Source: Minisyncoccia bacterium (GTDB lineage: Bacteria > Patescibacteriota > Minisyncoccia > Phycocordibacterales > DATGWK01). From it: 64,000 bases of DNA. Under the pieces are notes generated by a model that was not told the origin of the DNA, ran no database searches, and saw only the letters and a list, made by a program, of their open reading frames with translations. Each line of letters begins with the position of its first letter. The first letter of the stretch is position 1. The DNA lies in assembly GCA_038259265.1 (NCBI GenBank), contig JBBSOY010000001.1, positions 562-64,561 of the forward strand, read 5' to 3'. Below are positions 58,077 through 59,455 of the stretch, one piece after another. The translations under genes and the position numbers were made by a program.

Positions 58077-58253
58077 GGAAATAATATACCATAGAATGTA
58101 AAAAATAAAAGGGGCAGCCAGATTATGACCGCCCCTTCAAAAGAGACAACTGTTTCGTGTATTCTACTATCCTACTAACAAAAACAGGATTGCCCGCAGG
58201 GTTGTGTCGAATCGAGATGCGTATACTGAGAAGTGTTTTGATCTTGTTTATAT

Positions 58254-58270
58254 AAAAAAAAAGGGGGGGG
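58254..58270 (+). repeat. homopolymeric tract A9 G8 in the promoter region of the 58328 gene
   Basis: aaaaaaaaa gggggggg read directly, about 58 nt upstream of the ATG, in an otherwise 30-35% GC context. Confidence 0.9.
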
Positions 58271-58327
58271 TGCGAAGCTTGAATTAACAACAAATCTGAT
58301 TTCTAACCAGTACTATATAATAAATGA

Positions 58328-59455
58328 ATGAGTAATAAGAACACCAAAAACATGTCAGTTCAAGACCTTGCGGCCAAAAGGAACGGGCTAACTATCGAGA
58401 CCGGAAAGCTTTTGAGTCTTTCGTGGGCAGACTTAAATACTTTTTTATTGGGTCTTTACGAAAAGCGTGTAAGGAAAATAAAACATTCTGACCTTTTAGC
58501 AAACTACACGAGCAACACCTTTTTAAGGGTTTCTGACGCCGATCCAAGAAAAATTAATAGGATGGAAAATCTACTATTTGATACCCTTCCGCCCGATTAT
58601 AAAATTGTAGATATTGCGCCTGTCTCTCCAATTGGAGTTAACACGGTTCTTGCAAAAATTAGTTCCAAAACATCATTATCCACCATAAGGAATATCGAGG
58701 TTTTAAGTGATCCAACTACTCAATTGGCACTTGAAGCAGCGAGAATTAGGGTTTTACACAAAGATATCGACAATGTGAATCTTGCAAGCGCTTGTCGTCT
58801 TTTACGAACTCAAAAATTTGATCCCGCTTCTGGAATGACCAACCACTTCAAAGCTTTTGCCTTGGTTACATCGGGAAAAAATACAGGTGACAGAATATTT
58901 GAATACACTTCCATGTTCAGTCAAATAAAAATTTGGTTAGATTTTTTTAAAAAATCAGAAAATTTAGGATATAAACCAAAAAATATATCCGTTGCAATAT
59001 CTAATATTTCAATAATTAATGAATTATGTAAAGCAAAAATAATAGATAAGAAAAATGTCGTTGAGTCTATACGGTACAATAAAATTAGTATTTTTGAAAA
59101 AAATTCAGTCAGACTGGCAAGAGAGAGTGACGATATTACGGAACTCTCAGATATTCCTTATGAGTTTCTGCAAAATCCAATCGAAACTCTCAAGAGAGCC
59201 GAACTTGATTTTGTGAAAAACCTGCGAGAAATATATCCTGATGTTAAGTTCTATTACAGACTAGACAGAATTGCAGGCAGCACTTTTTACTCTGGCTTAT
59301 GTTTCAAAATCTACGCCGTTGCACCAGACGATAACAAACACGCACTCGTCGATGGAGGAGTTTCTGACTGGAACAAAAAAATTCTTCAAAATAACAAAGA
59401 GATGGTTTTTACCAGTGGATTCGGTAGTGAGTTGTACAGTAAGTTTTTTGACTAA
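58328..59455 (+). CDS. hypothetical protein (375 aa); weak, unconfirmed resemblance to a class II aaRS/ligase-like core
   Basis: Clean ORF in the AT-rich block. TIRNIEVLSDP and TSGFGSELYSKF vaguely recall class II motifs 2 and 3, but with non-canonical residues. Function unknown. Confidence 0.5.
   Translation: MSNKNTKNMSVQDLAAKRNGLTIETGKLLSLSWADLNTFLLGLYEKRVRKIKHSDLLANYTSNTFLRVSDADPRKINRMENLLFDTLPPDYKIVDIAPVSPIGVNTVLAKISSKTSLSTIRNIEVLSDPTTQLALEAARIRVLHKDIDNVNLASACRLLRTQKFDPASGMTNHFKAFALVTSGKNTGDRIFEYTSMFSQIKIWLDFFKKSENLGYKPKNISVAISNISIINELCKAKIIDKKNVVESIRYNKISIFEKNSVRLARESDDITELSDIPYEFLQNPIETLKRAELDFVKNLREIYPDVKFYYRLDRIAGSTFYSGLCFKIYAVAPDDNKHALVDGGVSDWNKKILQNNKEMVFTSGFGSELYSKFFD

Follow-up and report, generated by a model that had tools for sequence, protein, structure and literature searches.

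What is the role of a run of nine adenines followed by eight guanines in front of a gene: is it a switch that evolved to vary the promoter, or is it DNA left behind by another event? The question is raised by a stretch of 64,000 nucleotides (nt) from a Minisyncoccia bacterium (contig JBBSOY010000001.1, positions 562 to 64,561), hereafter the window, in which such a tract, A9G8, precedes a gene for a 375-amino-acid (aa) protein with the predicted fold of the catalytic core of HisZ and histidyl-tRNA synthetase (HisRS). A preliminary description, made from the letters alone, had placed this tract at a classic position for phase variation of promoter strength by slipped-strand mispairing. We favour, with a probability of about 0.65, a different reading, according to which A9G8 is lineage-specific junction DNA at the scar of a rearrangement and not an evolved promoter switch. 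The features of the locus are collected in Table 1.

The two flanks of the tract

The evidence comes first from the flanks, which have different closest relatives. To the right, homology with L001, a locus whose corresponding product is 89% identical to the 375-aa protein, can be followed from the gene leftwards as far as about 58271, where it ends. L001 carries a different gene upstream and no homopolymer tract, and no residual homology was found between that gene and the left flank of the window. To the left, a search for homologues of the neighbouring HIT-family hydrolase led to L063, the locus of an 88%-identical HIT protein, where a 261-aa gene lies directly upstream of the HIT gene on the same strand. 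Read on the minus strand from 58241 down to 58009, the window is 86% identical to L063 at the nucleotide level over 233 nt, and the matching region of L063 consists of the last ~38 codons, the stop codon and the terminator hairpin of the 261-aa gene (left flank versus the 261-aa protein, tblastn E = 4e-14). This homology breaks off sharply at 58242. The window thus holds a 3' stump of the 261-aa gene, which also makes up the C-terminal part of a mechanically called 56-aa open reading frame (ORF; 58123-58293), and the terminator running from 58138 to 58108 is the truncated gene's own, because its L063 counterpart matches. The 29 nt at 58242-58270, composed of tcttgtttatat and A9G8, match neither the left-hand nor the right-hand relatives, and it is for this reason that the tract is best regarded as a piece of the rearrangement junction.

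In the scenario that we favour, a rearrangement would have removed the first ~220 codons of the 261-aa gene, whose normal place is upstream of the HIT gene, and the remaining 3' stump with its terminator would have been joined to a mobile accessory cassette, with A9G8 among the 29 nt at the joint. A search of ~55.4-58.4 kb for the flanking repeats expected of a mobile element gave only short repeats at chance level. The 261-aa protein (L063 601-1386) matches no Pfam family; by eye, its segment 'SWDFMPGNIFIGD...FADP' is reminiscent of the catalytic loop of aminoglycoside-phosphotransferase-type kinases.

The distribution of the tract is consistent with a lineage-specific origin. It is missing upstream of the homologous gene in L001-L007 and in eight more distant loci of the candidate phyla radiation (CPR), and none of these 15 relatives has a G/C run of at least 5 upstream of that gene. 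Pattern scans for both flanks separated by a variable gap, run on JGI metagenomes and GTDB representative genomes, retrieved no other copy of the locus, whatever the length of the tract.

As to the tract itself, region 58250-58279 reads atatAAAAAAAAAGGGGGGGGtgcgaagct, and the description of A9 followed by G8 some 58 nt upstream of the start at 58328 is borne out, the last G being 57 nt from the ATG; the 30-35% GC given for the background is likewise close to the 35-37% measured locally. The assertion that G8 is statistically unexpected stands only in part. G8 is indeed unique in the window for its length, but 30 of 100 dinucleotide-preserving shuffles of the window contained at least one G/C run of 8 or more (mean 0.45), and first-order Markov simulation gave such a run a probability of 0.40 in the window and 0.06 in the 7.9-kb low-GC island alone. 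For a composite A7G7 with at most one mismatch, 0.13 matches are expected. A9G8 is uncommon, but it was chosen post hoc and is not compelling by itself. Two further A9 runs occur in the window (9025-9033 and 25221-25229), one in a convergent intergenic region and the other 6-14 nt inside the 5' end of a long minus-strand ORF (22707-25235).

Could the tract be older than the joint? Conceivably, a bidirectional intrinsic terminator once stood here, and the rearrangement removed one of its arms and left A9G8 as the other. Other A-runs combined with G4 in the window do sit at real terminators (~3371 and 58100), and the tract resembles the left arm of the 58108 terminator as a direct repeat at 14 of 16 nt, but this similarity is of low complexity, no complementary C-run lies nearby, and the equivalent position is coding sequence in L063 and unrelated sequence in L001. 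Lacking a partner arm, and with coding sequence at its L063 equivalent, such an origin is highly improbable and was rejected.

The junction could also be artificial, that is, a chimeric join of two genomes made at a low-complexity tract, a two-colour poly-G artefact, or a wrong homopolymer length from long reads. In addition to the different relatives of the two flanks, this explanation draws on the fact that the left flank has just one independent assembly, Logan contig L062 (SRR24807092), which stops at 58208 and misses the tract by 46 nt, and on exact-protein look-ups, in which the right-hand proteins (375-aa, 367-aa, S66, methyltransferase and MetRS products) were on record in no other assembly. 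However, L062 is 100% identical to window 55207-58208 (3002 nt) and spans the drop in GC content from 46-50% to 36-40% at ~56.1 kb, 2 kb to the left of the tract, beyond which GC remains low to the window end; because of this span, the low-GC island is genuine and includes both sides of the tract. At its other end L062 breaks just as arbitrarily, within a gene at 55207, which points to low coverage, as the simplest cause of both breaks, rather than to branching at the tract. A 3'-end poly-G artefact would moreover be incompatible with the unique sequence (TGCGAAGC...) that follows on the same strand, and truncated genes at rearrangement scars are common in accessory islands. An artefact is therefore very unlikely in our view.

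Promoter layout and the case for phase variation

Whether the tract could act on the gene depends on the position of the promoter. A −10 box, TATAAT, lies at 58316-58321, exactly 6 nt before the ATG at 58328, without a Shine-Dalgarno motif, and the same geometry of TATAAT, 6 nt and ATG is found upstream of the homologous gene in L001, L002 and L004 (the products of the last two being 68% and 65% identical to the 375-aa protein). Because the box stands 6 nt before the ATG and this geometry is kept in relatives, the mRNA of the 375-aa gene is most likely leaderless, with its +1 at the A of the ATG. This start would also favour the 375-aa version of the protein over the 367-aa version annotated by NCBI from 58352. 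Neither a good −35 box nor a TG extension was found in 58271-58327, and on the plus strand the tract is not the spacer of any promoter.

The layout is not peculiar to this gene. Of 60 window ORFs of at least 120 aa, about 14 carry a TANNNT hexamer 6-7 nt upstream of the first ATG, where the background frequency per position is 1.2-1.6% (binomial P ~2e-9), and Shine-Dalgarno motifs are rare in the window, which suggests widespread leaderless transcription in this CPR genome (of Patescibacteria/Saccharibacteria-like type). The features by which a leaderless promoter would be recognized, namely a −10 box ~6-7 nt upstream of the start, no Shine-Dalgarno motif and a recurring layout, are thus all found at the 375-aa gene. 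In many window genes the TANNNT box placed in this way is TG-extended, and examples of the layout include the starts at 4081, 7322, 7878, 12461, 14370, 39299, 39357, 58076 and 58328. We found no paper on leaderless genes in Saccharibacteria.

If transcription starts at 58328, the tract would extend from −74 to −58 (A9 at −74 to −66, G8 at −65 to −58), upstream of where a −35 box would be and outside both the −35/−10 spacer and the usual UP-element position. Phase-variable promoters have their repeats in the spacer, beside the −35 box or a regulator site, or in the 5' coding region, and by its predicted coordinates the tract occupies none of these. In the porA and opc genes of Neisseria meningitidis and in vlp of Mycoplasma hyorhinis, the homopolymer lies between −35 and −10, where a change of 1 nt alters hexamer spacing. 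The window tract is like these switches in being an intergenic homopolymer of about 8-9 G/C or A/T nt upstream of a gene, and unlike them in its location at −58 to −74. The T-tract of Helicobacter pylori sabA and the TAAA repeats of N. meningitidis nadA adjoin the −35 box or separate the promoter from a regulator site. The window tract shares with them a place upstream of the core promoter, from which it could in principle change phasing, whereas here a truncated gene lies upstream and the tract is not conserved in any relative. Given this position and the gene remnant upstream, we do not retain the idea of a classic site for promoter phase variation.

On the rearrangement reading, the cassette would carry its own short promoter, with TATAAT 6 nt before the ATG, fitting a leaderless mRNA from 58328, and the tract would lie beyond that core promoter with only dead DNA upstream. 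G8 or A9 would slip at some rate during replication, and the resulting length changes would be expected to leave transcription of the 375-aa gene largely or wholly unchanged; because only a dead gene remnant is found upstream of the tract, no activator site whose phasing could matter is foreseen. A perfect 5-1-5 palindrome, AAATCTGATTT, occupies 58292-58302, the expected −35 site of the 375-aa gene, and is a candidate operator; it is not conserved in L001.

Several points weigh against this reading or the assignments on which it draws. Slipped-strand mispairing is frequent in other bacteria from about the length of G8, and tracts upstream of −35 modulate promoters in a few known cases. The transcription start at 58328 is placed from sequence geometry only. 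Long G runs are also found elsewhere in related modules: L010 has a G8 (1942-1949) within the S66 coding sequence, in frame, and L022 has a G10 (15699-15708) ~140 nt upstream of a helix-turn-helix (HTH) regulator. In the window, the S66 gene has a C7 run (60307-60313), which is G7 on the coding strand and includes the codons GGG GGG of 'MGGNAL'. Finally, the 375-aa protein, to judge from its residues, may be a non-catalytic HisZ-like subunit. The C7 run is the second-longest G/C run of the window and also lies inside the island.

Some of these points are taken up by the proposal that the tract is a phase-variable modulator, in which slippage of G8 or A9 would shift the distance or helical phase of the A-tract, acting in the manner of an UP element, relative to the core promoter; the gene for the HisRS-like protein would then be switched or tuned, and the accessory module would be a contingency locus. 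G8 and A9 are slippage-prone lengths, the limit for a G/C tract in a phase-variable promoter being about 7-8 nt or more, and the tract is intergenic, with 57 nt between it and the start codon. Homologous modules, too, contain poly-G runs: the G8 of L010 and the G10 of L022 are the only G/C runs of at least 7 in 120 kb of low-GC loci, and the L022 regulator heads an operon of AsnRS-like, methyltransferase and S66 genes. On/off-like inactivating mutations are seen within the module among near-identical strains: in the lineage with 65% identity, represented by five near-identical assemblies (L003-L007), S66 has a 1-nt deletion in two of the five (L005 and L007), and the methyltransferase a nonsense change in one (L003). 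However, neither of these changes lies in a homopolymer run, and the loci examined were centred on the module, so that the enrichment in poly-G is weakly controlled. The tract is in addition missing from every relative of the gene examined and lies within junction DNA matching neither flank; its predicted position falls neither in the spacer nor where UP elements usually sit, and the truncated gene upstream is not where an activator site would be expected. We therefore consider a phase-variable modulator unlikely. An Rfam scan of the GC-rich region beside the G10 of L022 gave chance-level matches only, and no paper on simple-repeat phase variation in CPR bacteria or Saccharibacteria was found.

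The tract could alternatively serve the opposite strand, where C8T9 would form the spacer (16-18 nt) of a phase-variable promoter between TTCGCA and TATATA or TATAAA, driving a non-coding RNA (ncRNA) of ~120 nt or the 56-codon remnant ORF up to the terminator at 58138-58108. The distance between the hexamers is suitable, ~110 nt downstream there is a strong minus-strand terminator, and the mechanical 56-aa ORF reads across the tract. On the other hand, both hexamers are poor, with no final T in the −10 candidates, and they went unreported in the promoter scan; the supposed transcript has no Rfam match and a fold z-score of only −1.8, mostly due to the terminator hairpin, and corresponds to the decayed 3' end of a protein-coding gene with its own terminator. 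With poor hexamers and a silent scan, a minus-strand promoter of this kind was rejected and seems to us extremely improbable. An intergenic ncRNA was rejected as well, Rfam giving nothing at E up to 1 and the z-score being explained by the terminator.

As a switch, the tract is probably unimportant; it illustrates that a striking homopolymer can be a mere rearrangement scar.

A divergent HisZ/HisRS-fold family

The more lasting value of the locus would lie not in the tract but in the uncharacterised HisZ/HisRS-fold family to which the 375-aa protein belongs, and in the link of this family to an MccF-type peptidase. The protein is difficult to classify by sequence. It has no Pfam match at gathering score and nothing significant in NCBIfam, the hisZ model TIGR00443 gives 12 bits against a cut-off of 271.65, and a PDB sequence search with the single protein returned no match. 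Among 11 homologues found, four carry precomputed matches to PF13393 (tRNA-synt_His). A family profile was then searched against 1.84 billion representative proteins clustered at 50% identity, with 1901 matches at an E-value threshold of 1e-3, of which 735 also passed 1e-30. The family therefore comprises at least 735 clusters with a patchy distribution over CPR bacteria, Melainabacteria, Nonomuraea/Streptomyces, Chloroflexi and Acidobacteria; its members are typically 365-390 aa long, with a shorter form of ~320 aa. We found no paper on this family.

Structure prediction, which the preliminary description had proposed together with remote-homology searches, was more informative. When the AlphaFold model built on the family alignment (predicted local distance difference test score 80, predicted template-modelling score 0.81) was compared with the PDB by Foldseek, the catalytic cores of HisZ or HisRS accounted for all of the top 50 matches (E from 6e-13 to 1e-10, template-modelling score 0.56-0.59, 11-16% identity), and the protein is predicted to have the antiparallel-sheet class II fold of HisRS/HisZ type. 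The faint class II ligase-like motifs initially noticed in the protein are in keeping with these matches and with the PF13393 hits of distant members, which identify it as a divergent class II protein.

The family profile aligns with HisRS over the HisA/HisB/motif-3 region, where 'dRiaGlgyYsGlCfkIy...DGGvsDW...SGFGtE' faces 'vRGLdYYtG.vFE...GGGRYD...GFamGlE' (the Escherichia coli HisRS sequence of this comparison was entered by hand), and it matches Thermoplasma acidophilum HisRS with E = 0.014. The protein resembles HisRS (PF13393) in its motif-2-like R..R.Q...HF, HisA-like R..G..YY.G, HisB-like GG..D and motif-3-like GFG.E elements, but lacks an anticodon-binding domain, and the HisB 'GGRYD' is replaced by 'DGGxSDW'. 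In the alignment, the position of HisRS Arg259 is occupied by Ala or Gly and that of the motif-3 Arg by Leu. With neither the anticodon-binding domain nor intact HisA, HisB and motif-3 residues, the protein is not a tRNA ligase. The family nevertheless has invariant residues of its own, both in the motif-2-like region (R157, R160, Q162, H173, F174) and elsewhere (R121, E124, R314, G317, Y321, G343, G344, W348, G364, G366, E368), from which the pocket appears strongly conserved without being a histidine pocket.

HisZ (PDB 3od1, 5m8h, 1z7m) is the best structural match, with which the protein shares a length of ~375 aa and a HisRS core devoid of the anticodon-binding domain. It differs from HisZ in sequence (12-16% identity, and a hisZ model score far below the cut-off) and in context, since hisG or other his-operon genes accompany it in none of the ~60 family loci, be they from CPR bacteria, Melainabacteria or actinomycetes. 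It was therefore not assigned to HisZ.

The accessory module and its surroundings

Table 1. Coordinates of the features discussed, given as positions in the 64,000-nt window.
Feature	Position	Strand	Basis or remark
HIT-family hydrolase, divergent from the 375-aa gene	57675-58076	-	Pfam PF01230, E 1.8e-15
Intrinsic terminator, 13-bp stem followed by a T-run	58108-58138	-	overlaps the stop codon of the truncated gene; conserved in L063
3' stump of the 261-aa gene (last ~38 codons), truncated on its 5' side	58126-58241	-	L063 homology
29-nt junction	58242-58270	.	matches neither left- nor right-hand relatives
A9 homopolymer run	58254-58262	+	read directly from the sequence
G8 homopolymer run	58263-58270	+	sole G/C run of at least 8 in the 64-kb window
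Promoter-proximal segment of the cassette	58271-58327	+	~71-90% identical to L001
375-aa class II aminoacyl-tRNA synthetase paralogue, HisZ/HisRS-type catalytic core, no anticodon-binding domain	58328-59455	+	
S66 peptidase, MccF clade, convergent with the 375-aa gene	59452-60456	-	Pfam and PDB sequence search
S-adenosylmethionine-dependent methyltransferase, probably 279 aa from start 61282	60443-61369	-	
Asparaginyl-tRNA synthetase (AsnRS)-like class IIb catalytic core, no anticodon-binding domain, frameshifted	61279-62414	-	
Methionyl-tRNA synthetase (MetRS), 473 aa, same operon-like array and low GC	62411-63832	-	
3' end of an ATP-grasp gene	63874-63999	-	tblastn with the L002 ATP-grasp protein, 52% identity, E 6e-7

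The 375-aa gene faces an array of minus-strand genes, in the order S66, methyltransferase, AsnRS-like, MetRS and ATP-grasp, and the cluster continues past the window end. L002 and L004 have the same array, in which genes share 4 nt where they overlap. The 4-nt overlap reported between the 3' ends of the 375-aa and S66 genes is real and kept in relatives; it results from the TAA of the former (59453-59455) and the minus-strand TAG of the latter (59452-59454). No terminator separates these two convergent genes, and because the first minus-strand terminators lie beyond the 375-aa gene (58108-58197), the S66 operon could be read antisense through the whole of this gene and its promoter. On the other side, the HIT gene is preceded by an extended −10 box of its own, TGGTATATT, which stands 6 nt upstream of the ATG.

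The association extends to more distant relatives. In 10 CPR loci whose 375-aa homologues are 28-40% identical to the window protein, an S66 gene lies within two genes in 8 of 10 and a methyltransferase gene in 6 of 10; AsnRS-like cores also recur across these loci, and both convergent and co-directional arrangements occur. L022 has a pyridoxal-phosphate-dependent decarboxylase in addition to its HTH regulator. Melainabacterial members neighbour GNAT acetyltransferases, TetR regulators, AurF-like di-iron oxygenases and CPT-like kinases, and those of actinomycetes IclR/LysR regulators.

The module resides in an island of 36-39% GC within a contig of 46% GC, and the L002 cluster is similarly poor in GC (32%, versus 38% in its flanks). 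Insertion-sequence-type integrases adjoin the cassette in L003-L008 and L010. The low-GC island of the window contains NUDIX, split S51 and HIT genes, the module of the HisRS-like protein, and MetRS. This accessory module is undergoing decay in several lineages. The AsnRS-like gene of the window has lost 1 nt near 62286-62289 compared with L002 (AGGGTTTTT in L002, AGGTTTTT here); its reading frame is shifted, and it is either a pseudogene or affected by an assembly error. The L002 version of the module is free of frameshifts. The S51 (peptidase E-like) gene of the window (56965-57634, minus strand) is split into ORFs of 74 and 138 aa, identically in the independent contig L062. Among the near-identical assemblies L003-L007, three differences were noted relative to L004 (positions 1079, 2885 and 3419): a promoter single-nucleotide polymorphism, which precedes the −10 box of the HisRS-like gene by 4 nt, and the changes in S66 and the methyltransferase given above. 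L002 also encodes, at 4780-7653, a leucyl-tRNA synthetase of 957 aa in which a precomputed Pfam match to NUDIX falls between tRNA-synt_1 segments.

The S66 peptidase offers a hint at what the module may do. MccF is an S66 peptidase that provides self-immunity to microcin C (PMC8323819). The window protein aligns with MccF over its full length, including the inserted loop region that LdcA lacks, which argues for membership of the MccF clade. In PDB sequence comparisons it matched MccF-like 4e5s (2e-58) and E. coli MccF 3tla (6e-53), while matches to LdcA entries were at ~1e-25 or weaker and split or partial. Unlike the MccF system, the window locus has no mccA, no mccB (ThiF-like) and no peptide-nucleotide cluster. 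MccF (S66), MccE2 (GNAT) and MccH (HIT) are the three known types of enzyme that detoxify aminoacyl-nucleotide antibiotics (PMC8323819). By analogy, because MccF-type S66 peptidases, like GNAT and HIT enzymes, detoxify such compounds, the module most likely makes or handles an aminoacyl-adenylate-like small molecule, which the MccF-like peptidase would hydrolyse. A known anti-phage defence system was considered and rejected, as PADLOC gave no specific match: it had none for the HisRS-like, S66 and AsnRS-like proteins and generic ones only for the methyltransferase, HIT and NUDIX proteins. No relatives of the module were found among IMG/VR viral contigs.

A bolder proposal, which we regard as a long shot, unites the HisRS-like, AsnRS-like, MccF-like and methyltransferase genes with the ATP-grasp gene, the co-transferred MetRS and the HIT gene next door in one mobile island of CPR bacteria that would make or resist an aminoacyl-nucleotide inhibitor of tRNA synthetases, with stochastic expression conferred by poly-G (the G8 here and in L010, the G10 in L022). 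If true, neither a simple-repeat contingency locus nor an antibiotic/immunity system of this kind would have been described before in episymbiotic ultra-small bacteria.

Beyond the fate of a single tract, the company kept by the family may prove more instructive, as its neighbours correspond to types of enzymes that detoxify aminoacyl-nucleotide antibiotics (PMC8323819): CPR members adjoin MccF-type peptidases, those of Melainabacteria GNAT and CPT-like enzymes, and the window member a HIT protein. Once known, the ligand of the family would define a new functional class among the paralogues of tRNA synthetases, and might reveal small-molecule warfare or immunity in ultra-small symbiotic bacteria.

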